Source: Vicugna vicugna
Lineage: Eukaryota
Assembly (NCBI GenBank): GCA_013265495.1
Contig: MU058198.1
Span: forward strand, 7,021,779-7,085,778
Direction: 5' to 3'
DNA length: 64,000 bases
The notes under the pieces were generated by a model. It saw only the letters and a program-made list of their open reading frames with translations. It made no database searches and was not told where the DNA came from. Position numbers and translations under genes: made by a program. Below, one piece after another: positions 2,072-54,181 of the stretch. The stretch's first letter is position 1. Every line of letters begins with the position of its first letter.

Positions 2072-3718
2072 AAAAAACAGACACATACAACAACTGAACA
2101 GAATAGAGAGCTCAGAAAAGAACCTATGCATATGTGGTCAATTAAATTTACAACAAAGAATATGCAATGCCAAGAATATACAATGGGGACAGGATAGTCT
2201 CTTCAATAAATGGTGTTGGGAAAATTAGACAGCCACGTGCAAAAGAATGAAACTGAACCACTACCTTACACCACATGCAAAATGAACTCAAAATGGTTTA
2301 AAGACTTGAATGTAAGACCTAAAACAATTAAACTCCTAGATGAAAACATAGTGGGTAAGCTCCTTGACATTAGTCTTGGCAATAATTTTTTGGATTTGCT
2401 ACCAAAAGAAAAGGCAACAAAAGCAAAAATAAACAAGTGGAACTATGTCAAACTAAAAAGCTTCTGCACAGCAAAGGAAACCATCAACAAAACGAAAAAG
2501 CAGCCTATGAAATGGGAGAAAATATTTACCAATCACATGTGATAAGAGATTGGATATCCAAAATATATAAAGAACTCATATAACTCAACAGCAAAAAAAA
2601 ATCCAATTTTAAAATGGACAGAGGAACTGAACAGACACTTTTCCAAAGAAGACATACAAATGGCTAACAGGTATATGAAAAGGTGTTCAACATCACTAAT
2701 CATCAGGAAAATGCAAATCAAAACCACAACGAGATACCTTATACCTATTAGAATGACTGTTACCAAAAAGACAAGATATAAGTGTTGGAGAGGCTGTGGA
2801 AACAAGGGAACCCTGTATACTGTTGGTGGGAATGTAAATTGGTGTAGTCACTATGGAAAACAGTATGAAGAGTCTTCAGAAATTAAAAACAGAACTACCG
2901 TATGATCTAGCAATTCAACTTCTGGGTATCTAATCAAAGGAAAAAAAAATCACTATGTCAAGAGATATCTGCACCCCCATGTTCATTACAGCACTATTTA
3001 AAATAGCCAACACATGAAAATAGCCTAAGTTTCCATCGACAGAGGAATGAATAAAAAAAGTAATATTTATTTATTTATTCACTTATTTCAATCAGAAAAA
3101 AGAAAGAAATCCTGTCATTTGTGACAACATAAATAATAAGTGGGCCCTGAGGGTATGACGCTAAGTGATACAAGTTAGATAAAGAAAGATAAATACTGTG
3201 TGATATCACTTACAGGTGGCATTTAAAACAACCAAACTCACAGGAACAGAGAGCAGATTGCTGGTTGCCGAAGCCTGGATCCAGGGGGGGATGGCGGAAA
3301 TGGATGAAAGTTGTCAAAAGGTACAACTTCCAACTATAAGATAAATAAGTTCTGGGGGTATAATGTACATACAGCATGGTGACTATTTTAAAAAGAAAAA
3401 TTTCAAAAGATAAATCATATATGAAAACTAAGATAATTTTCTTAACTTATGAAATCAATAAAAAATTAAGAATGTTTAAATCATGAGAAAGCTAATCCTG
3501 ATCTGTACAAACCAGAATATTGTGCTGGCATTATTTTTACATGGCAAATTAAAATGTAAAGATACTGGATCATGCCAAAAGCTCTTGTTTTATCTTGGAA
3601 CTAAAGCCTTATCTCATCTGTAACTGTAATTACCAAGCCTATTACACAAATACAAATTTTTCAGTGCCCACAAATGAAAAATACATAGTTTAGAAATTCT
3701 TTTAGACATTTTTTTTTA

Positions 3719-4689
3719 CAGTTGACCCTTGAACAATGCGGGGATTAGGGAATGTAAGGAAACAAGACCCCCATCCCCCACCACTATGCAATTGAAATCC
3801 AAGTATAACCTTTAAAATTTTTCTAATTAAATTTTTTTGCAGGAGGGTAAGTAACTAGGTTTATTTATTTTATTTATTTCATAGTGGAGGTACTGGGGAT
3901 TGAACCCAGGATCTTGTACATGCTAAGCAGATACTCTACCACTGAGCTATACCCTCCTCACCCCAGTATAACTTTTGATTCCCCACCAAACTTAGCTACT
4001 GGCCTACTGTTGACCAGAAGCCTTACTGATAACATAAACAGTTGATAAACACATATTTTGCATGCTATATATATATATATATTATATACAGTATTCTTAC
4101 AATAAAGTAAGCTAGAGAAAATGTTATTAAGAAAATTGTAAGAAAGAGAAGCTACATTCACAGTACTGTATTTATTGATACTGTGAGTTTACATTGTCTG
4201 TTTATGAGATGAATCATCTGTCAGGATCAACATCAGAATTGTCTTATAGAAAACATTTTAGATATTGTATGTATTACTAACATTAGACATCAAAAATGAA
4301 AAGATAATGTGAAAAGGAAATTCACGTTTATTTGCAGATACAACAATTCATCCACTGATAAAGAAGCAGCAGCAATATGATTGCCTTCTGAAGCCTAGTG
4401 TGGTTGACAGTGCCACGTATGGTCCATCAATGTTTGTGTGTGTAAGTTCTGATAAATTTTCACTTCCTATAATAGTGTATATGTTATGGTAGTAATAGAC
4501 TAGTATCTGCTTATATTTTATGTATTCATGATATACCTAACTTTTTCTTAATTTTTTCAATACTTCTAAGCTACATGTTTTTTCAAATTGTTGCATATCT
4601 CAAAACTTTTTCCCAACATATTTATTGAAAAAAATCTACATATAAGTTGACCCATGCAGTTCAAATCCATGTTGTTTGAGGGTCAACTA
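3719..4689. mobile_element. Non-autonomous TcMar-Tigger DNA transposon (Tigger2/MER28-like)
   Basis: Terminal inverted repeats CAGTTGACCCTTGAACAA (from 3719) and TTGTTTGAGGGTCAACTA (to 4689). TA dinucleotides on both sides (3717-3718, 4690-4691). Confidence 0.88.
3812..3964 (-). mobile_element. tRNA-derived SINE (camelid type) inserted in the Tigger element
   Basis: Minus strand reads GAGGGTATAGCTCAGTGGTAGAG (A box) ... GGTTCAATCCCC (B box), followed by an A-rich tail. Approximate TSD AGTATAACYTTT at 3802 and 3965. Confidence 0.85.
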
Positions 4690-4948: not shown

Positions 4949-5110
4949 ATTTATTTATTTATTTATAATTATTTTATTTCTTATCTTTTTCTTTTGGTGG
5001 GGGTAAGGTAATTAAGTTTATTTATTTTTGGAGGAGGTACTGGGGATTGAACCCAGAACCTTGTGTATGCTAAGCATGCACTCTACCACTTGAGCTATAC
5101 CCTCCCCACT
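4949..5110 (-). mobile_element. tRNA-derived SINE (camelid type)
   Basis: Same A/B-box head as the SINE at 3812-3964. Perfect 13-bp TSD GGTACTTGACAAT (4936-4948 and 5111-5123). Confidence 0.88.
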
Positions 5111-5221: not shown

Positions 5222-6736
5222 GAAGAAGAATGGAGTTGGGTGAATCATGAGCCCTGACTTCAGACTATACTACAAAGCTACAGTAATCAAAACAGTATGG
5301 TACTGGCACAAAAACAGACACATAGATCAATGGAATGGGATAGAAAGTCCAGAAATAAACTCCAGCACTTACAGTCAATTAATCTACAATAAAGAAGGCA
5401 AGAATATAGGTGGAGAAAAGGCAGTCTCTTCAATAAATAGTGCTGGGAAAACTGGACAGCTACATGTAAAAGACTGAAATTAGAACATTCTCTAACACCA
5501 TATACAAAAATAAACTCAAAATGGATTAAAGATCTAAATGGAAGACCAGATTCTATAAAACTCCTAGAGGAAAACATAGGCAGAACATTCTTGGACATAA
5601 ATCACAGCACTATATTTTTTGAATCAGCTCCTGGAGTAATGGAAATAAAAGCAAAACTAAACAAATGGGATCTAATTAAATTTAAAAGCTTTTGCACATC
5701 TAAGGATACCATCAACAAGATGAAAAGACAACCTATAGAATGGGAGAAAATATTTGCAAATGATACAACTGACAAGGGACTAATTTCCAAAATATACTAA
5801 CAGCTCATACACTTTAATAAAAAAAAAGCAACCTAACCCAAAAATGAGCAGAAGACCTAATAGACATCTCTCCAAAGAAGACATCCTGATGGCCAACAAG
5901 CACATGAAAAGATGCTCAACATCACCAGTTGTTAGAGAAACACAGATCAAAACTACAATGAGATATCACCTCACACCAGTCAGAATAGCCATCATAAAAA
6001 GTCAATAAATGATAAATGCTGCAGAGGGTGTGGAGAAAAAGGAACCCTCCTACATTGTTGGTGGAAATATAAATTGGTGCAGCCATTATGGAGGACAGTA
6101 TGAAGGTTCCTTAAAAAATTACAAATAGACTTACCATATGATACAGCAATCCCACTCCTGGGCATATATCTGGAGAAAAATATAATTTAAAAAGACACGT
6201 GCATCCCAGTGTTCACAGCAGCCCTATTTACAATAGCCAAGACATGGAAACAACCCAAATGTCCATTGACAGATGATTGGATAAAGAAGATGTGGTACAT
6301 ATGTAAACATATATATATAGAAATACTACTCAGCCATAAAAAAGAATAAAATAATGCCATTTGCAGCAACATGGATGGACCTGGAGATCATCATTCTAAG
6401 TGAAGTAAGACAGAAAGAGAAAGAAAAATGTCATATGATATTGCTTATATGTGAATCTCAAAAAAAGGACACAAATGAACTTATCTACAAAACAAACAGA
6501 CTCACAGACATTGAGAACAAACTTATGGTTACCAGGAGGTAAAGGGGTTGGGAAAAGAAAAATTGGGAATTCGAAAATTGCACCTCTTGGGGAATGATGG
6601 AAATGTTAGCTATCTTGATTGTGGTGGTGGTTCCATACGTGTATACATTTTTCAAAAATTAATCGAATTGTACATTTGAAATACATGTAGTTCACTGTAC
6701 AGGAACCATACCACAATAAAGGTGTTAAAAAAAAAG
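5222..6736 (+). mobile_element. 5'-truncated LINE-1 (~1.5 kb; end of ORF2, 3' UTR and A-tail)
   Basis: ORF2 peptides [42 protein letters not shown] and MPFAATWMDLEIIILSEV. AATAAA and an A-tail near 6715-6735. Near-identical flanks AATCTCTC(TC)TTTT at ~5207 and ~6737. Confidence 0.92.
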
Positions 6737-9099: not shown

Positions 9100-9870
9100 G
9101 CTCTCCTCAAACGCGCAAAGCTGGGAGGCGGGAAACTTTGCCCAATCCTCTGCCTCTCTGGGCCCCAGTTTTTCCTTCACGCCCAGGAAGCGCTCTGAGA
9201 GCACAGATTCGGGGCAGGGACGACGCTCTCCACATCAGGCAGGAGGCCAGGCGCCTCTTACTTCACGTCTCCAGGACCGACTACCTGAACGCACCTCGCG
9301 CAGCGCCCAGCACGGCCGCGATCCGCGCGCAACCCCTCAACTGGCCCGAAGACACCACGCATGCGCCGAAACTCCCGTCCCCACGAGATTGGGGGCGGGA
9401 CCTAGAAGCGGCTGCGCAGCTGCTCACCCGGCTTCCGGGTGATGCTGGCGGGATGGGTCTGCGAGCCAGTGCCGCTGAGTAGCGGCGGCATAGGGGCGTG
9501 CGAGCCCAGAGATCCAGCCCGGGGGCTCAGGTCCCCGGGTTCTCTGGGAGCGGCCGGAGGGAGCGGAGAGAACCTAGGATTGCCGCCCGCCGCAACCCCT
9601 GGGCATGTCCGCAGAAGCCTCGGGCCCGGCGGCGGCCGAGGCCCCGTCCCTGGAGGTCCCTAAGCCCTCGGGTCTCGAGCCTGGCTCTGCCGCCCACTGT
9701 CTCAAGCCACTGACCCCGAACAGCAAGTACGTGAAGTTGAACGTGGGCGGCTCGCTGCACTACACCACGCTGCGCACCCTCACTGGACAAGACACCATGC
9801 TCAAGGCCATGTTCAGCGGCCGCGCGGAGGTGCTCACTGACGCCGGAGGTACGCGAGCCGCTCTTGCTTA
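9100..9870 (+). promoter_or_regulatory. KCTD13 CpG-island promoter
   Basis: CpG-dense. NRF1-like ACGCATGCGC (9357-9366), GC box GGGGCGGG (~9392) and ETS CTTCCGG (~9433) lie upstream of the ATG at 9605. Confidence 0.85.
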
Positions 9871-12800
9871 CTGCCCTGCATCCTCCAGATCCACATCTCC
9901 CTTTCCCCTAGTCTTTCATCGCGCAGTCTCCTCATGCCCCTTCTCTCCTGTCGTCCGGTCAACTCATCCTCAGCTCCTCCAGCCGCCACATCCCATCTCA
10001 TCTCCCCTTTCTCATTCACGATCTCCCTCCTCCCCGGCCCCCGGCCCCCAATCTTTTCCCCCAGCGGTAGTAACCAGCATTCATGGAAAACCCAACCCCT
10101 CAACTACACTGCCAGGCGCTGTGGTAAGTGATTCAACATGTCAGCTCAGAATTTTCATGACTACTCCCCACTGATTCTCCCACCCTTCACCCCTCAGCTC
10201 AAAAGACTTGGGAACCAGCCCTGCTGCCAACAGCATGTTTCCAGGCAACCTTCACCAATGTCTTAAAACTGCCCAGCCTTTTGTTCCTCTCTACCTCAGC
10301 ACTGTTAACAACCTCCCAGAGAGCTGGAGGATCTTGTCTGTCTCTGTTCCCTTAACATAGGTCCCTGTACATCTGTAAATACAGACTGTAGAAGAAGGGG
10401 GCTGCTTTGGGTTTGCCAGGGACGCCAGAGTGGAGAATGAACAGATCTCTTTGGCAGGCGAACCTTACCTTCTCGAAGCTTTACATTCATGTCTAGGCCC
10501 CATTGCCCAAGTGGAACCTTAAAGTTTGGTGGGGGTGGGGAGGGATTCAGAGACAATTAACAAGGATTGTGAGAGCAGGAAAATAAAAATTGGGGAGGTA
10601 GAACTCAGTCTTCAAATATCTGAAGGTGACGAATTTATTTATTCACTAAGAATTTGTAAAATGCCAGTTAGTGCTGGAGATTGGTTAACGAATCTGATAA
10701 ATTAGCCTTATGGAATTTTCTTTTTTTGTAGGGGCAGGGAGAGAACAATAAACAAGTAAACATACCAAAACACAAACAAAACACGTAACTCTAGATAGTA
10801 ATAAGTTCTATGAAGAATATAAAGGTTAAAATGGTGGTAAACTGGAGATTGGAGTAGACATTTTAATTTAATAGGATGGTCAGAATTAAGAGGTTAGAGG
10901 TTTATTGATAAGGTATCTGTAGGAGCTTTCTCACGGTGAGAACCTTTTCAGTGTAGAACAGACTTGGGAGGGAATTAATTCTCTGGCTGGATGTATTAAA
11001 AAGAGGCCTATGGGAGAACTCACTAGAGATTTTTTTAAAGGAATTTTCTTGAATATGGTAGAGGCTTGAGACAGATCGGTTTTCAGACTTGTAGCTTTGG
11101 AATCCCTTTTTCATAAGAATTAGTAGCTCTAAGGCCTTCAGCAAAGCCATCCTTCCTCCTGCCTCTCCCCACCCTCCAGGTTGGGTGCTGATTGACCGGA
11201 GCGGCCGCCACTTTGGTACAATCCTCAACTACCTGCGAGACGGGTCCGTGCCACTGCCTGAGAATACCAGAGAACTGGGGGAGCTACTGGGCGAAGCACG
11301 CTACTACCTGGTACAGGGACTGATTGAGGATTGCCAGCTGGCACTGCAGGTGAGGGTCCCTCCCCCACCTCCTGAGTCCCACCCCTATGCCCATGTCCCT
11401 GGGAGAGCTGCCCAAGCAGTTAGCTATTAAGACATTAAAATAAATAAATAAATAAAAGGAAATATGGGGCACTGCCTGGAGGACTTGCCTCTGGCCTGGC
11501 TCTGACTAGCCATGACAGCAGAGACTTTGGGGGTACTGTCCTCTGCATTCTGCTGCCCCAGGCAGGGCCCCCCTCACCACCTCATGCCAAGACTACTGCA
11601 GTGGCTAAATGACTGCTCTCTCTGCTTCTTGCTGCTTCTACCCAGCCGATCCAACTGTTACACTACCACCAAATAATTGTCCAGTTTATTCTCTCCTTTG
11701 CTCAGAAATTCCAAATAGCTCCCTTGTCCCACTATGAAAAAAAAATCTAAATTCAAATTGGAACATAGTGATCTCCATGATCTGGTCCAACCCTGGGAGG
11801 CAGCATTCCACCCCTCCCAGGGCATTAATAATTTTTTTTCTAGTAATGAAATATTATAGAAGCAGCCACTCATAATAAAACAGGGTTGGGGGTTCCAGAG
11901 CCCCACCTGCTGGGCTTTTCTTCTGGGGATCTCTTAAGACTGTGAGGAGAAGAGCTTGGAAAGCACAGCCAGGGCATAGGGGTTAAGTGCTGCCTCCACC
12001 ACAGCTGACTGAGTGACCTTGAGTGAGTCAATTCCTACCTCGGGCATTCTGTTCTCATGTTCCAAAAGATAGTGAAATGAGAAAAATGTGTACAGTGTAG
12101 TGAGTTTCACATAAAGCCTTTTATTCTGTTTCATTTTTACAATGTTCAAAGTGTCCTTTTATGATACAGTATTAATAGGAGATTATAAGAGTTTCCTTTT
12201 AGATGCCCTTTATATATTAAAAAGTGGCAACTATGAACAACTCTCTGTTATCTTGGAGAATACTTACTGATTCTTAAAATCCGAAAGCATAGAATTCCTT
12301 TGAGCCATATCCATGTTTTTCAAACTTCTTGACTGCATCTCATAGGAAAAAAATGCATTTTATACTCACATATAAATAATTGAAATAAGAGTTTTAGTAA
12401 ATGAAACTTTTAGTGAAATACCCTCTGATATATTCTATTTTCTTTTTTTCTTTCCAATGCTATTTGGGACCCATTAAATTTATTTCATGACCCATTAATG
12501 GGTTACCACTAGCAGTCTGAAAAACATTAAACTAGATTATTTTGGAAGTGCATTCCTGCTCTATATGGCTCTACATTTATCTAATGTTATCTCACCCCCA
12601 CCGTGTGTTAGGATCGGTTCTGTTATCTTCCTGTATCCCTGTTTGACATAAAAAGAAACACGAGGGAAGCTGGGGATGCATCCAAGGTCAAAGAGCTGAT
12701 AAGCAGCAAAGCTCAGTCAACCGCAGTTTATCTGACTCCCAAGCACAGTACTTTTTCTTCTGTGCTCCAACTGCCTCCTTTCCAAGTTTCCCCGAGATCA

Positions 12801-15800
12801 TTCCCATCCCAACCCAACTCAGCTAGAATATGTTTGTTTGTTTGAAGGTTTTTGTTTTTAAGATTCAGGTACAGAGAAGTAAATTTATCATACTTCTTAG
12901 TGTGTGGTACTTAATCATCTTGGTCTATGCAGATCTTTTCTCTTTTTATTTTTTCCTTCATTCCCAATCCCCTGCCTGTTTCCCTTTTCCCCTTAGATAC
13001 CCCTCCAGTCCTAATGTTTTGATACATATGCTTGGATTATGTTTGTACCCTTGAAAAGCTAAAGCATTCTTTTGTAAACATATGCATTTTAAATTTCCAT
13101 AAATGACATTGTGCTATGGGTTGTGTGTTCTATTTCTTAATTCAACATGTTTTCCAAGATTTGTTCATGTTGCTGTGTGTACATTTAGTTCTTTGCTTCT
13201 AACTGCTGCACGGGAATCTATGGTGTGCAATCGCCATATTTTATTTATACATTCCCCTGAGGTTGGAGACCTAGCTTGCCTCCCGCTTCCTGCCCCCACA
13301 GGCGGTGCCACCGTGAGCATCTTTGTACACGTCCCCTTGTGGGTCCTGGGCCAGGGTTTCTTATGATTGTAGCTGGGAGTGGAATTGCTGGGCCACAGGA
13401 CACATACAAAGGAATTTCAGCAAGTGTTATCAGATTACTCTCCCAAATGGCTGTAGCACCTTATATGCTTGATGAGCAGTGCATTAGGAATCCCATTTCT
13501 GCATATCCTCAACAACACATGGCATCATCCAGCATTCTCATTTTGCCGATCTGATTGGTACAGAGTGATCTCATTTTAATTTGCATGCTTTCAATTACTA
13601 ATGCGATTTAGTATCTCTTCATATACTCACTAGCTTTTTTGGTTTCTCCTTCTGTGAATTGCCTATTCATATTCTTTACCAAATTTTCTACTGAGTTTCC
13701 TATCTTCTTCTTGTTGCTTTGCAAGAGATTCTTGCATCTTTTAGTTGAGTTCCTTGGGAGAATTAAGCCCTATTACCCTAAGGCATGTGTTTTTTTATAA
13801 TAAATTAACTTTTCTCCTAAGTATCTAGCATGGTACTGTTTACTTGTCATTCTCAGAAGAGTTGAGAAACTTGTTACTTTAATTATTTGCTGGGTTTTGA
13901 TATTCAGTGAGGAACCCCATTGAGGAAGTCTGTATCAGGTAATAGTTTCTAGTCAATTTTAGATGTTGCCAGTATTTTATTAGAATGTCACCTGTGTGTG
14001 GCATCTGTTGTTGAATAGAAATTTTTGTTTTTTTTAAATTATAAATAATTATTTATTATTTTTAAAGCAGTATATAACTATTGTAGAATTTTAGAAAACA
14101 GAGATAATCAAAAAAATAAAAGCACCAAATATCTTTCCAGGTCTTTTTCTGGGTGGGTGGGTGGGTGGGTGGATGGGGGTGTGTGTGTGTGTGTGTGTGT
14201 GTTTGTGTGTATTTTCTAAAATATGATTATGCTGTATGTGCTGTTTTGTAATTTGCTTTTTTGTTGTTTGTTAATAATTGCCATCTTTCCATGTCAATGA
14301 AATTTTATTTAATATCGAGGGCATATACAAATTTCTCCATTTGTTCCAGAAATGTCTTTTATAGCTGGTTCATCTAAACCAGGACCCAATTTAGATCCTT
14401 GCATTATATCTGGTTATTATGTTCTTTAAGTCTCTTCCAGCCCCAAACAGTCCCCTTCTTCTCATAATACTGACTTGTTAAAGAGAACACCAGTTGTCCT
14501 GCCCAGTGCCCTACTTTCCAAATTTACCTGATTTCGTTTGTTACCCTACCCTATCCTGAGTTTTCTGTAAACTAGATGGTAGATTTAAAGGCTTGTTATT
14601 AAACATTTTGGTTAGAATACATTATAAGTAAATGGTGTATATTTCATGTTGTGTTATATCGAAACCCAGAATATTGTTAACATGACCTGTCGTTAGTGAT
14701 ACTCAGAAATTGGTGCCTGGATTCAGGTGATGATGGTTTGACCCCTCCATTGTAGTTACATTTCCTTATTGCCAACTATAAAGTAATTTAAGTACTTTAT
14801 GAATGGCAGTTACCAATCAACCGCACATCAGTTGATGATTCTCACCTGAATCAGTAATTTCATTAGGGTAGTAGAATAATTATGTTACGTTCCTTCAACA
14901 TTATTACATGGGATAGTTGTAAAGTCATGCTTTTCATTGTCAACTGGAGTGATTCTTGATTTTAATATAATCAGATTTGACTCTTTTTTGTTTGCCTCAT
15001 GGTATATCTTCTTGGAATCTTGTTTAAGAAGTTTTTCTCTATTCTGTGTTTTTTATTAGTTTTTTAGTTTTATCTTTTAACCTAAATGGAATTCACTGTT
15101 GTAAATGTGAATTGTGAAGGGATTTAACTGTCTTTTGTTCTCCATAGAGTGAGCTAGTTTTTTCAGTGCCGTCTACTGAACAGTCTTTGGTAGCCAGCAT
15201 CCAAGGCTACCAGCAATTCTTGCCTCTTGCTTATTCAGGCTGTTTAGTCACCTCCCACACTGAATAGAGCTGACCAATGTAACCAGTAGGAGATGCAGAA
15301 ATGATAGTGTGACTTCTAAAACTGGGTCATAAAAGACATAGCAATTTCTGCCTCTCTTGGATCATTCACTCTGGGGAAGCCAGCTGCCATGTGAGGATAC
15401 TCAAACAGCCCTAGGGGGAGGTCCACTTGGTAAAGAAATGAAGCCTCCTGCCAACGGCCAGCACAGACTCCCAGCCAAATGTGTGAACAATCCCAGAAGT
15501 GGATCCTCTAGATCCAGTCAAGTCTTCAGATAACCAAAGCCCTGATCAACGTCTGGACTCCAACTTCATGAGGGACCCTGGTCCTAGGGCCAGGACCACC
15601 TAACTAGCCAATCTCAAGTTCCTGACCCACAGAAACTGTGTGAGATAATAAATATTTATTGTTGTTTTAAGCTGCTAAGTTTGTAGTAATTTGTTACCCA
15701 GTAACAGATAACAGATTTTGGTATCTGGAGTGGGGTTCTGCCATAATGAAAACCTAAAATGTGGGAGCGGCATTAGAACTGGGCAGTGGGCAGAAGCTGG

Positions 15801-18800
15801 AAGGACTTTGAGAAGAATGTTAATAAAAGCCTAAAGAGCTTTAAAGAGAGTATTCACCGTAATCTGATGACCTTGGAGGAGGCTGCAGTGTGGAACATGT
15901 TTACTGGAAAGTGGTGGGAAAGGGATCCTTGTTATGTAGTGGCAGAAGTAACAACTCTGTCTCCTACAGTTGTGCAGAAAGTAGAAAATATACCTGATGA
16001 ACTGGGTGATGCAGCTAAAGAAGTTTCCAGACAGCGTTGAAGGTACCACCAGATTTCCTCCTGCTTACAGTAAAATAGAAGAGGAGAGGGTAAACTAAAG
16101 GCACAAAAAATTGAACAAAAAAGAGCCAGGAATTTTGGGGCTTGAAAATTTCCAGCTTTTCAGATAACAGCTGGTGTTAAAATTAACAAATGGCTTCCAG
16201 GCAGTGGTCAAATACAGGGCATTCTCAGTAAAACATGGTCTAAAGATGAAGCGAGGATGTGGTTATAAAATCCTTTGTTAAGACCTCAGAAATATCCAAG
16301 AAGATGCCTCAGAGAACCATTCACTCAAATAATAGCACTTATAAGAAGCTTAAGGCTGTTGTCAGGCAGCAGCCTCAGCATAAGCCCAAAGTAGAGGAGC
16401 TTATCTCACAAAGATGTATGGGTGTGGCTTTTGTCTAATGAACTGAACCCCAGAACTTGCAAGACACCCATTAAGTTTTTAAGAGAATTATATTAGCAGA
16501 AACACTACCAACGTAGACTGGAAGGGACAGAGACAGTGCAAGAGGAGAAACCTTTGGACCCTCAAAGTTCTACAGGCAGAAAGCTGGCCAAGGAGACTAT
16601 GGAGCTGCAAACACGGACTCTCTCTTTCATGGAAAAGGAAGGATGACTCAGGTCAGAGCCAAGAGCCATAGAGAATCATTCCTGGACAGGAGTAGACATC
16701 AGAGAGCTCCCAACATTTGTCCAACGGATTACAAATTTACTTGAAGCAGTGATCTCTGTGCCTCCCCAGCCCCCGACCTTTTGAACAAGAGTCATTATCC
16801 AAATGCCTGTTCCACCATTGCATATTGAGTGTGTGAAAGAGATAACTTGTCTCTTTAGTTCAAGGTCTTCAGATCCAGAGGAAATGTACTTAAGGAGCTA
16901 TAGTTAAGGAACTATTCCCAAGGAGTGTCATTGCCACCTGGGCCTGATTTAGATGACCAGATTCTGTACTTCAGTGCTGTAATGGGATGAGACTTTGGGG
17001 GGTCTTGGGAAGGGGTGAGTGCTGTGCATATGGGATGGATTTGAATCAGTGGGGGCCAGAAGGTGGACTGTCGAGCTAGCCTCCAAGGCAGTCCCCAATG
17101 ATTCTAATTCCCTAGTACTTATTCCCTTGTGTTGTTTGCTCCCACACTGAATAGGGCTAACAAAAGACATTGAGGCATTCACTTTGCTCTCTCAGATTAT
17201 TTGCTCTAGAGAAGCCAGCTGCTGTATTATAAGGACACTCAAGCAACCCTATAGAGAGGTCCAGATGACAGGGATCAGATGTTTCCTGCCAATAGCCAGC
17301 ATGAATTTGCCAGCCATATAAATAAGCTTTCTCAGAAACAAATTCTCCAGACCTAGACATGCCTCCCAATTACTACAGCCCCAGCTGACTTGGCTATAAC
17401 CTCGTGAGAGACCCCATGCCAAAAACACTCAGCTAAGCCACTCCTGAATTCATGACCCACAGAAATGGATAATAAGCACTTGTTGGTTTAAGCTGATCAG
17501 TTTTGGGACAGTTTGTTACACAGTGATAACTCATAGACACTTGCCCCACTGATCTGTGATGTTCTCTTTATAAATATTAGTTCTCATGTATACACCCGTC
17601 TGTTTCCAAGTTCTCTATTGTGTTTCTTTGTTTTTGTTTGTTTGTACTACACTGTTTTCATTATTATGGCTTTGTAGGATATTTTAATATCTGGTAGGGT
17701 CAGTCTCTCCTCTTGCTTGACTCTTTTTAAAAACTGACCTGAGTAATAGATTTATTCTTCCATATTAATTTTAGAAAAAGTCTTAGGAGCATCTCAAAAA
17801 AAAAAGTCTTCTGGAATTTGTATTAGAATTGCACATCTAGTTTTTAGGTTGAGAGAGGTGAGAGGAGTTTTGGCATGATGATTCTAGAAGACAGAGAAGA
17901 GGAAAGAGACCTGTATGTCTGGTTCTGATTCTCCCTCCAACCTCCCACCCAGCCCAGTTCATTTATTCAACAGATACTTACTGAGCATCTACTGTATACT
18001 AGGTACTTACTCCCTAAGTGGGAAGAGATCATGAGCAAATATACCCCAAAATGAGAAAATGTGAGGAACTGAGTGCTATGAAGAAAGTGAACTGATAATG
18101 TGAAAAGGAAGAAGTAGGCTGCTTTAGCCGGGGAGCTTAGGGAGGAGGACCAGCACCCTCTTAGGGACACTGCTTGAGTTGTGATCTGAATGGTATGAAG
18201 GGGCCAGCCATGCAGACAACTAGCGTGGACCATTCCTGGCAGTGGGAGCAGCAAAGGCCGGCAGCACCAGCTGGATTTGTGAAAGAACAGGTGGGGCTGA
18301 AACCTAGCAGGCAAGGGAGAGTAGCAGAGATGCGATCAGACAGTTTGCATCCTGTAAGAGCCTAGTGGACCGCTAAGGAGTCTGGATTTTTTTCCCCAAA
18401 GGCAACAGGAAGCTTTTGAAGACTTTTAAGTAGGGGAGTGAGTGACCTTTGGTTGTGCTGTTAATCACCTTCCGCTTCTTCTCCAGCAAAAAAGGGAGAA
18501 CCTGTCCCCGCTGTGCCTCATCCCCACGGTGACATCTCCCCGGGAGGAGCAGCAGCTCCTGGCCAGCACCTCCAAGGTGAGGCCCCTAAGCCCTGTAGGG
18601 TGGAGGCTGGGGGCCTGTCCCTGCAGCCTGACCCCCACCCTTCTCCATCCTTTCTCCCCCAACAGCCCGTGGTGAAGCTCCTGCACAACCGCAGTAACAA
18701 CAAGTACTCCTACACCAGGTGAACACCTCAGGGGTGGGGAGGTGCACTGGGTGGAATCCTGGGCTCAAGCGTAGCCCTGCTCCTGGCCCAAGGGGAGGGT

Positions 18801-25799: not shown

Positions 25800-44325
<18,526 letters not shown>

Positions 44326-49949: not shown

Positions 49950-51130
49950 CCTTTTATGGGCCGTGGGGACAGGGATATGGGAGCTGGGGAGGAAGGTTGG
50001 AGAGAGGGGAACCTGGGGCGGCGCGCGGCTACCCGTTGCTATAAAAACCTTGGCGTCTGCGGAGGTTCCCCAGCTCCGTTGCCAGGAGATTAGGGATTCT
50101 AGAATCAAGGGTGGGGTGGGGGGCATTTTACCAGCTTATCACATTCGCTCTTCCAACCTCTCCTCCACCCCCTCTAGGTCCCTCCTTGGGGGCAGTGACC
50201 TCAGAGCCAGTGGCTTGAGAAATTGGGGAAGATTATGTAGGGTGGAGCCTGGGACCTAATCCTCCTACCACTAGGGGTACGCAAGAAGCAACCCCGCCCC
50301 AGGCCGCTGTCCAGCCTCTCTAGCCGTCAACTCGTTGCCTGAAACCTGCGGGAGCAGATAAGGACTGAGAGACTGGGCGGGGAAGAAAAATGTGGACTGT
50401 ACCAAGTAACATTGCCTCTCGGAGGTGCAATGACTCAGGAGTGCGGAATCTTTTCTCTTTTGTACCCAGAAAGTCACACCCTACGCAGAAAGGAAAGTAC
50501 AAACATTTATCTAGGCCTCCTCTTTTGACCTCTCCCTTTCAGTTCCTTCCTTTCCTCGACGTTGATTGTTCTTTGCCCCCTCTCCTCCCTCTGTGCTTTG
50601 GTACGAGCCGATGGAAAGGGGAGGAGGAAAGAAAAGGAAAAGGAAGCGAGCAGGTCTTAAAGGGGCAGCAGCGGTTTTTTAAGCCTCCTCCTTCCTCCAA
50701 TTTTGCAAGAGCGAACGCAGAAGAGTAGGTTTCCGGAAGACGAGTACAGCTGGAACAGCAAGGGCTGCAGCTGGAGGTGGGAGCGCGTGCGGGGCTGACG
50801 GAGGCGAAGGTCTGCCCGTAGAAAGGGCGGGGTGTGCGCGCCCCCTGCGCCCAGCGCCCAGCGCCCAGCGCCCAGCTGGGCTTCTGCATGCTCCGGCCGG
50901 CAGTGAGCTTTAACATCTGGGGCCCGGCTAGGGCAGCAGGGACCTGCGCGCAGTGGGCGAGGCCGATGCGCCGGGCCGGAGGGTAAACTGTCTGGCGGGG
51001 CTAGGACAGAGCTGGCACCTCCATATAGGGCCCAGGGCACCCAGTAGGCCTCCGCGATGCCAGGCGAAAATATCTTCCTGTTTGTGCCTAACCTCATCGG
51101 TGAGTGTATCCGCGGCTCCGGCCCGAACGG
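49950..51130. promoter_or_regulatory. CpG-island bidirectional promoter region of CDIPT and the opposite-strand gene
   Basis: CpG-dense. ETS palindrome TTCCGGAA (~50731), GC boxes, and X-box-like motifs at 50035, 50078 and 50334. Confidence 0.75.
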
Positions 51131-53657
51131 GATGGCTAGGGCCCTTGCTTGGGCAGGCTCCCTGATCTGCCCTGTCTCCCCTTGTCCGATCCCAAGGTTA
51201 TGCCCGGATTGTCTTCGCCATAATTTCTTTCTACTTCATGCCCTGCTGCCCCCTCACGGCCTCCTCCTTCTACCTGCTCAGCGGACTTCTGGACGCTTTC
51301 GATGGATACGCTGCTCGAGTCCTTAATCAAGGTGACAGACACCTCTTTCCAGCCAGCCTTGGGGTCCAACAACCCTCTGGCCCCTTTTCCTGCCTCCTCA
51401 GGACCTCTGGGTGGGCGAGTACTCGGGAATCTGAGGGCTCTGTCATTCCTATCTCTGAAGCAGAACAGAATGGCCTGGTTTTGTAGCAGAAGGGATTTAA
51501 GTTCGCTGTTGAGGTGAACTCAGAGATAGTGAGGGATGAGGGATAGCAAGACTGGGCGTGGCAGTGCTGGAGGCCTCTCTGAATAAAAATCCATTCAACA
51601 ATGTTTACTGGGCATCTACTGTGTGCCAGGCACAAGCCATAAGGATTCCAGAAGGCATGTTTAGAGGGAGGATGGAGAGGGAAGGTGGACGGCTTCTGGA
51701 GGGTTGACTAATTTTTTCATCTGTTCTTCAGCCCTGCCTCCAAGACTTCAAGTCTCTGTGTCTTGAGACCTGGATCCTTGGTTCTGGGACTGATGAGTTG
51801 TAGAGCTAGATTTCTCACTCCCTCCTACACTGTTCTCTCCACACTCCCATGCTGCCTTGTTACATGGTGTGGTGACCCTTGCCCTTTGACCTTCGCACCC
51901 CAGCAATAGCAGCCTGTTTTCCTCCCCGGGCAATGGATGGTGGACATTTTCACTCTTAGGCTCTGCATCAAGTGATACATCAAATATGCTCACTGTCGTA
52001 GATCCACTACCCTCTTCAGCCCCTTTCCACCTAATAGTCCCCATTTTTCAGGAACCCGGTTTGGGGCCATGCTGGACATGCTGACAGACCGCTGCTCCAC
52101 AATGTGTCTGCTGGTCAACCTGGCCCTGCTGTACCCTCGCGCCACCCTTCTCTTCCAGCTCAGCATGAGCTTGGATGTGGCCAGCCACTGGCTGCACCTC
52201 CACAGGTCTGCGATTCCAGGGGTGCTGAGCAGTTGAAGACATTGCGGTGGGGAGGAGTGAAACTTTCTGGGGAGGAATGTCTTCAGGCTTTGGGGGAGAT
52301 CTCCTGTTTAGCTCTGCTTTGTTGAAGGACCCTGGGAAAATCTCTAAATCAGCTTCATTCATTCTGTTTTACCAGTGGTTTAAGCAATCCTGAAAACTCT
52401 TCTGACTGGATATTTGAGGATTTCAAATAGATAACACCCCCCGGGAAGGGGCGTAGGGCATTAGAATCCTCATTCTTCCCCCATCTAAGTAATCTGTGTG
52501 ACTGCCGGCAAGCTGGTGATCCTCAGCTGTGCCCCATTCTCTCCTCTGTTCAGCAGAGGCAATCCCAGGCCCTACCTTGTGGGGTTGATAAGAGAATTAG
52601 ATGGGTATTTATGGTAATTAACACTTATAGATTCCCCCTACTTTCTCCCCAAGTTCTGTGGTCCAAGGCAGTGAAAGTCACAAGATGATTGACCTGTCTG
52701 GAAATCCAGTGCTTCGCATCTACTACACCTCCAAAGTAAGCATTTCCTGCCCCTCCCTATTTACTCAGCTTATGGCAAGGTCTGGCTGAGCCCTAGACCT
52801 GGGGTAGGATCTGCAGGAAGGGCCTGTGTGAATTGCTCCAGGCAGCAAGATAACCTGAGACCCAGGTGCACCCAGAGAGGAAGAATTCTTTGGCTTGAGG
52901 GGAGAGGGAGAGAGGGAGGGAAGGAAGGAGAAGCCAGAGCGGTCTGCAGAACCAGCTCTCAAAAGGCTGTAGGCTGAGACAAGGAGTGTAGACCTTATCC
53001 TGGGCGGAGGTTGTAGCACCGTCAGATAGGGTCCAGGGCCTGCAGCGATGCCAGGCAGAAATATCTTCCTGTTTATGCCTAACCTCACTGGTGAGTGCTG
53101 CCTGCGGATCTGGGCCAAAAGGGAGGGGGAAGAGGGGCAGATTACCTGATTCCCAGATCCCCCCAACCATCCCAGCCTCACCACAACCCCCTGCACCCCT
53201 GTTTCCCCAGTACAGTTCCTGACCCTAAGTTTGTTGGGGAGGAAACTGCCCCACCCTCTTGTTTAAGCAACGTTTTTGCTGTTTGTGCAGCCTGCTCTAT
53301 TTATCCTGTGTGCTGGCAATGAGCTCTTCTACTGCCTCCTCTACCTGTTCAATTTCTCCGAGGGACCTTTAGGTAGGAGATGAGGTGCCGGGCAGGAGGA
53401 TGGGAGGAGGACTGGCCTGCCCAGAAAGATGAAGGCTGCAGACTCTTGGGCCTGTCCCTGAGTTTGCATCCTGCTTTCTCTGTATCGCCCGCCTTTGCTC
53501 CCTTCCCACAGTTGGCTCAGTGGGTCTTTTCCGAATGGGCCTCTGGATCACCGCCCCTATCGCCTTGCTCAAGTCCCTCATCAGTGTCATCCACCTGATC
53601 ACAGCCGCCCGCAACATGGCTGCCCTGGACGCAGCAGACCGTGCCAAGAAGAAGTGA
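51057..53657 (+). CDS. CDIPT: CDP-diacylglycerol--inositol 3-phosphatidyltransferase (phosphatidylinositol synthase), 213 aa
   Basis: Exons 51057-51099, 51197-51331, 52052-52205, 52654-52735, 53291-53372, 53512-53657; total 642 nt. CDP-alcohol phosphotransferase motif DAFDGYAAR...G...D...D; C-terminus RAKKK. Confidence 0.98.
53005..53175 (+). other. Intronic duplicate of the CDIPT 5' UTR end, first coding exon and intron 1
   Basis: 53048-53090 matches 51057-51099 at 38/43 nt. ATG and donor GTGAGT are retained. Weaker similarity extends upstream and downstream. Confidence 0.9.
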
Positions 53658-54181
53658 CCCTGGCACCTCCAGCCCCTGGCTGCTCACCTGCCCTGGGAGC
53701 CTCACTGTGCTACGCGGCTCCCCTCTCCCTCCTAGGAGGTCCCAGGCTCACATCTTCCTAATGCATCGTCCAACCTGTGGGGAAGGGAGGGTTAGCCTTG
53801 TTGGTGATGTCATGTTCTCCGTAATCCCGAGGACCAGTCCCACCCCCGTGAGCTCCAAGGACCTGGACTTAAAATCAGGAAGGATGCTCAGGAGGCCCTG
53901 CCCCACATGGGCAGTGCTTCTGGGGCACCAAGATTGCTGTCTGAGGACTGGACATTGTCACAGCTGCTGGCTCAGCCCTGAGGTCTGGCTGGGCCTAAGA
54001 CTTTGGGGACACTTGAGTGAGGGAGGTGGGGTAGGGGACAGGTTTTCCAAAAGGCAGGGATTCAGACTTCTGACCCTGGCTAGAGGAAGCCTCTTGGCAC
54101 TGTGGCCGGGAGAGAAGGGACCTTCTAGATCCCTGTTGCAATCTCCTCTGTCCTGTCTGTCCTGGCTCTGAAAGCCTTGAT

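Follow-up and report, generated by a model that had tools for sequence, protein, structure and literature searches.

A processed retrocopy has had its introns removed and carries a polyA tail and a target-site duplication. Short local duplications have been described for human DNA in PMC2671141, where 824 duplications lie within 5 kb of their source and have a mean length of 162 bp. In the same study 753 of 1,136 duplications were less than 3 kb apart, no polyA/T tract was present in any of the 39 proximal cases inspected, and two whole exons had been copied, without coding constraint. Decoy cassettes, according to PMC6097662, occur in 12-17% of retained introns of at least 1 kb, against about 2% of shorter ones, and the decoys of SF3B1 are conserved far beyond mammals.

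Here we describe a duplicate of the 5' UTR end, coding exon 1 and intron 1 of a CDIPT-type gene inside intron 4 of that gene. The duplicate is real, as confirmed below, and we consider it, with a probability of about 0.77, to be the worn relic of an old local repair-type duplication that is decaying without function. A search of the CDIPT literature, outside which fell most subscription papers and genome-browser annotation, gave no report of the copy or of such an isoform; the copy itself appears to be undescribed in the searched literature, and its class already described.

Host gene, source and copy

We take the host gene to be CDIPT, a name that comes from an earlier note on this DNA. The gene, the source of the duplication and the copy comprise the following features; "the window" denotes the whole 64-kb stretch of DNA that was analysed.

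50600..51150, no strand assigned: CpG island spanning the promoter and the true first coding exon (CpG o/e 0.75, GC 64%)
51057..53657, plus strand: CDIPT-type gene, 213-aa open frame, GT-AG intron ends
51057-51099, 51197-51331, 52052-52205, 52654-52735, 53291-53372 and 53512-53657, plus strand: its six coding exons, with intron phases 1,1,2,0,1
51013..51196, plus strand: source of the duplication from alignments, i.e. 5' UTR end, coding exon 1 (51057-51099) and intron 1 (51100-51196)
52736..53290, plus strand: intron 4, 555 nt, which houses the copy
52897..52933, plus strand: pure purine tract of 37 nt with a G-quadruplex-type motif and short tandem units, outside the duplicate
53014..53047, plus strand: copy of the 5' UTR end, with a 10-nt source segment missing (0/1000 shuffles)
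53048..53090, plus strand: copy of coding exon 1, with E4R, V10M and I14T and both CpGs deaminated
53091..53096, plus strand: copied splice donor CTG/GTGAGT, matching 8/9 consensus positions
53091..53175, plus strand: copy of intron 1, 85 nt, with its final CAG at 53175 and no exon 2 thereafter

The CDP-alcohol phosphotransferase motif occupies residues 47-72 of the 213-aa product. Exon 3 alone gave a weak match to PF01066 in Pfam (E 0.066, below the cut-off) and none among solved structures, and the two matches of an Rfam search were both far under their gathering scores. Elsewhere in the window, frames at 9578-10171, 39926-40687 and 42264-42809 resemble the start of a BTB domain and sushi/CUB repeats, which presumably agrees with KCTD13 and SEZ6L2 as neighbours.

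When the window was compared with itself by BLAST, 51047-51135 paired with 53037-53127 (81.3% over 91 columns, E 2.2e-15), and this was the only partner of the duplicated stretch within the 64 kb. The exon match reported in the earlier note was reproduced exactly, with 38 of 43 bases identical between 51057-51099 and 53048-53090, no gaps and a distance of 1991 nt. The exon copy reads MPGRNIFLFMPNLT and retains the GTGAGT donor, and its ATG and frame are likewise intact, as had been claimed. The looser similarity said to continue through intron 1 to 53175 was not equalled by any of 2000 dinucleotide shuffles, and with a second scoring 4 of 1000 shuffles reached the observed value; a branch-like CTGAT word in the copied intron is common to the source. 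The similarity claimed for the 5' UTR (51013-51044 with 53014-53045) likewise withstood dinucleotide shuffling (0/1000), albeit with a weaker outcome when the final 60 nt of the 5' flank were tested globally (77/2000 shuffles). Only the 3' edge of the CpG island is included in the duplicated part.

The limits of the insert were set from both sides. Upstream of 53014 a looser similarity reaches 50978 in the source and 52983 in the copy, and the source may start as early as 50978. Downstream of 53175 no similarity to exon 2 was found (1691 of 2000 shuffles scored as high). A longer duplicate pairing 50886-50963 with 52775-52843 had seemed possible (18/500 single-base shuffles) and was rejected as not significant with dinucleotide shuffles (145/1000; 2/44 control tiles higher), and neither of the remaining parts of intron 4 stood out against 252 window segments. 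Since exon 2 is absent and the match farther upstream failed, the insert is about 160-190 bp long.

Other repeated sequences were seen in the window. A tRNA-like SINE of about 100 bp is present in four copies (3863-3961, 5011-5109, 30887-30971 and 41115-41177; pairs 75-85% alike), which may resemble a camelid SINE family. An old same-strand pair, 15352-15702 and 17187-17524 (1.8 kb apart, 66% over 358 columns, stops in all six frames), may have come from a single repeat family of which both are remnants, and an AT-rich 1.1-kb pair, 2073-3218 and 5310-6453 (71% alike, 3.2 kb apart), probably represents LINE remnants.

That the copy is an artefact of the assembly is scarcely credible. The two exons are 12% divergent, with a pattern of CpG decay, which makes an artefact very unlikely. 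In addition, six sequencing runs from two studies, one of them possibly the source of the window, contained 0.88-0.94 of 114 words sampled from 52600-53700; 12% of these words lie wholly within the copy and 18% touch it, and the observed presence therefore exceeds the maximum possible if the copy were wholly missing.

Probable decay of the copy and preservation of its exon

The five differences between the exons are all transitions. Four are nonsynonymous (on 32.7 sites) and one is synonymous (on 9.3), a ratio of 1.1 (Fisher p 1.0) that equals the neutral one, albeit with the low power of five substitutions; with the same reservation, these counts give no sign of purifying selection on the peptide of the copy.

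The direction of the changes could be read from proteins of other species. A profile built from both read-through frames matched two proteins, P0019 and P0020. P0019, from another species, is a read-through of UTR and exon 1 into intron 1; of 15 exon residues it shares 14 with the source but 11 with the copy, and P0020 likewise retains E4, V10 and I14. The three amino-acid differences therefore arose in the copy. After the exon P0019 continues with ECCLR, which the copy encodes without any base change and to which the gene's own intron 1 can be fitted at a cost of 4, including a 1-base gap; only 3 of 20000 random window positions fitted its three informative residues as well by chance. This fit implies that the source itself has contributed some of the divergence between the flanks. 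Provided that P0019 represents the true exon 1, the copy (53098-53107) would thus preserve an older state of the start of intron 1, from which the true intron (51107-51115) has drifted. The identity of P0019 as true exon 1, rather than as another species' copy, is itself only weakly indicated by its upstream sequence: its 15 upstream residues cost 16 to the source and 20 to the copy, and for the last five of them the order is reversed (4 to the copy, 6 to the source).

CpG sites have decayed in the copy. Two of 11 aligned source CpGs are kept and five, including the two of the exon, are now TG or CA, compared with 9 of 17 GpC dinucleotides retained as a control. The CpG o/e around the copy is 0.15-0.25 against 0.75 at the promoter, and a loss of this kind is what one would expect if sequence from an island came to lie within a methylated gene body. 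The estimated divergence, d = 0.13-0.19 per site, would at mammalian rates place the duplication tens of millions of years ago. Together, the substitution pattern supports the decaying duplication that the earlier note had listed among its options, and the five substitutions and the one outgroup peptide suggest that the copy has been neutral.

The same note regarded the exon as better preserved than its flanks. In raw mismatches this is correct (5/43 against 44/142, p 0.011; 5/43 against 30/101, p 0.021, in another count), but as a sign of selection on the copy it is largely explained by constraint on the source: selection holds the true exon fixed and leaves the true flanks to drift, and this accounts for most of the apparent difference. 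We modelled this by an exon divergence of d, with only the copy free to change, and a flank divergence of 2d, with both source and copy free. With all sites the model was not rejected, either in one alignment (p 0.32, 0.13) or in the other count (p 0.40, 0.20; with the donor included 0.25, 0.11). When non-CpG sites were considered (exon 3/39, flanks 37/123), the exon was conserved in excess of the model with p 0.12 or 0.042, and with the donor included with p 0.059 or 0.018. This small excess counts somewhat against the copy being a relic, and is to be read together with the flank alignment behind it, in which 27 transversions against 17 transitions are a sign of misaligned columns, and with the fact that good preservation of the exon was what drew attention to the copy in the first place. 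Also counted against a relic is the joint survival of the ATG, the frame, the full GTGAGT, the branch-like word and the final CAG; at the observed divergence, the probability of neutral survival is 0.31-0.55 for GTGAGT and 0.56-0.74 for ATG.

Origin, splicing outcomes and competing explanations

The statement that the copy is not a processed retrocopy was borne out, since intron sequence is held and exon 2 is missing, intron 4 has no run of A or T of six or more, and the two sides of the copy share no 6-mer that could mark a target-site duplication; age weakens the polyA/T test. The size of the insert, its distance from the source and the missing marks of retroposition point to DNA-templated repair. 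We propose that a DNA break in intron 4 was repaired long ago from a nearby template, that the repair would have pasted some 160-190 bases from the end of the 5' UTR, coding exon 1 and intron 1 of CDIPT into the intron, and that the copy would since have decayed without function. The purine tract 50-80 nt upstream of the copy might be a fragile site behind the break, although this is a hint only, since the window holds eight pure purine/pyrimidine runs of at least 30 nt and 31 G-quadruplex-type motifs. A second G-quadruplex-type motif, which the source does not have, is found at 53112-53137 within the copied intron.

A relic could also have come about by another route, through reverse transcription of unspliced nascent RNA or trimming of a larger tandem duplication, possibly with gene conversion of the exon. 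The copy has the same orientation as the gene and runs from within the 5' UTR to the acceptor of intron 1, and the contrast between an exon with transitions only and flanks rich in transversions is what a refreshed exon would show. There is however no polyA tract or target-site duplication, which age may have erased, and no further source sequence elsewhere in intron 4 by the shuffle and segment comparisons given above, and we hold such a route to be very unlikely.

Orthologous DNA was sought with a degenerate exon-plus-donor pattern, which had no match in metagenome contigs, and with an exon 6 alignment search, in which none of 446 pattern matches was confirmed. Two reverse-strand frames across the copy had no relative among 25 candidates, and none at a cut-off of E 0.001 when 1.84 billion representatives were searched. 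On the minus strand a stop-free frame of 192 codons (50657-51235) spans the CpG island together with exon 1, and the copy lies inside a 165-codon antisense frame (52765-53262) for which no relatives were found; both are probably shadow frames of GC-rich DNA. The human CDIPT locus has an opposite-strand transcript.

All splice products were computed from the sequence. Joining the copy to exon 5 would, as had been predicted, be out of frame, with a stop after 24 aa that ends 50 nt ahead of the last junction. This is at the edge of the decay rule of 50-55 nt. Joining it to exon 6 would be in frame and give the 62 aa without catalytic motif that were also predicted, and the unspliced copy would encode 33 aa. 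If 53091 served as an alternative donor of exon 4, or if intron 4 were kept, the product would be 155 aa with a stop at 52787, and use of the copied acceptor at 53175 would give 186 aa. A frame-preserving exon of 322 nt (52769-53090) in place of exon 4 was discarded, as it holds four stops. Normal splicing presumably joins exons 4 and 5 across the copy. Fourteen RNA-type rows contained 0.33-0.37 of the words sampled from 52600-53700, where 0.25 would be predicted from exons only and 0.40 from exons together with intron 5; the divergence of a related species could also yield such values.

One explanation that gives the copy a function is that the 53091 donor is used and has been kept as an unproductive splice site tuning the level of phosphatidylinositol synthase, either by extending exon 4 by 355 nt, a route missing from the earlier note, or as a decoy that would slow removal of intron 4; the resulting transcript, truncated to 155 aa, would be targeted for decay. 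By a simple count against the donor consensus this donor is the best of the gene, scoring 8/9 against 7/9 for the exon 4 donor and 6-7 for the real donors in general. It lies 200 nt before the exon 5 acceptor and is followed within 70 nt by four G-runs, compared with one after the exon 4 donor; the stop at 52787 would sit 301 nt ahead of the new junction, and the excess conservation at non-CpG sites (p 0.018-0.12) would suit a constraint at the RNA level. Yet a cassette exon would find no usable upstream acceptor, as the sole strong one (52768, 19/22 pyrimidines) follows the exon 4 donor by only 33 nt and none of the others has more than 15/22 by a simple pyrimidine count, leaving the donor without a paired 3' splice site. 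Moreover, intron 4 is 555 nt long, and the decoys in PMC6097662 are mostly in retained introns of at least 1 kb. Judged from these sequence properties, 53091 could provide exon 4 with a second 5' splice site, but its retention for control of the enzyme is unlikely.

The other functional explanation, which the earlier note had offered as an alternative internal first exon, is transcription from an internal promoter and splicing to exon 6, to yield the 62-aa membrane peptide with the last helix and the lysine tail. Since the product of splicing to exon 5 would end after 24 aa, such an exon must skip exon 5, and its phase 1 donor indeed suits exon 6 only; it also has a purine at -3 of the ATG, an open frame and a GC box at 53002. 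GC boxes are nevertheless common (37 in the window), the CpG island was left uncopied, as the low CpG o/e around the copy reflects, and constraint at the protein level is lacking (four nonsynonymous changes against one synonymous). The 33-aa unspliced product was absent from the protein collection, and no exon-1-like start is present in any of 14 short proteins that terminate with the peptide of exon 6, a weak test because these proteins resemble gene calls that read through intron 5. We regard an internal first exon as highly improbable. More broadly, the idea that the copied exon and donor were taken into service, either as a 5' splice site that competes and is conserved or as an internal start, and would set the level of phosphatidylinositol synthase, is doubtful on the present sequence comparisons. 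As a separate observation, the short database proteins P0001-P0013 share the exon 6 peptide at their ends but not their N-termini, which are unrelated and look like intron 5 translated by a gene caller; they should not count as isoforms.

What the copy means depends on which explanation holds. If it is a relic, it neatly illustrates a known class and partly records older intron 1 sequence, and it calls for caution, in that reads from exon 1 may be mis-mapped to such a copy and false gene models may be built on it. If the 53091 donor were used at a low level, a truncated and probably degraded transcript would result, and if it were both used and conserved, a local repair copy would have created splicing-based control on an essential lipid enzyme.

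Comparison with described duplications and decoys

The CDIPT copy resembles a processed retrocopy in being a dispersed copy of transcribed sequence that starts in the 5' UTR. It differs from one in that intron 1 is kept, exon 2 and the 3' end are missing, and there is neither polyA nor target-site duplication.

In PMC6097662, the decoy or poison exons of SF3B1 intron 4 are likewise associated with a strong unannotated intronic donor, here 8/9, whose use leads to a premature stop; unlike them, the CDIPT copy lies in a short intron and has no clear paired acceptor.

The duplications described in PMC2671141 are the closest: like them, the copy is short, non-tandem and less than 3 kb from its source, includes intron sequence and has no polyA tail. 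With about 160-190 bp it falls within the sizes of that class (at least 50 bp, at most about 620 bp), its offset of 1991 bp lies within the distances (more than 50 bp, at most 5 kb, not tandem), and its ends are free of polyA/T, a comparison that age weakens. Unlike the cases in PMC2671141, it is not inside an interrupted transposon, and breakpoint marks such as microhomology, filler or a small deletion are not visible. The nearest single parallel is the copy of ACSBG2 exon 7 in the same study, also an exon in an intron of its own gene, its frame open and coding constraint absent. For ACSBG2 the orientation is inverted and ESTs support the copy, whereas the CDIPT copy is in the same orientation as its gene and comprises a first coding exon with its start codon, the end of the UTR and a whole intron.
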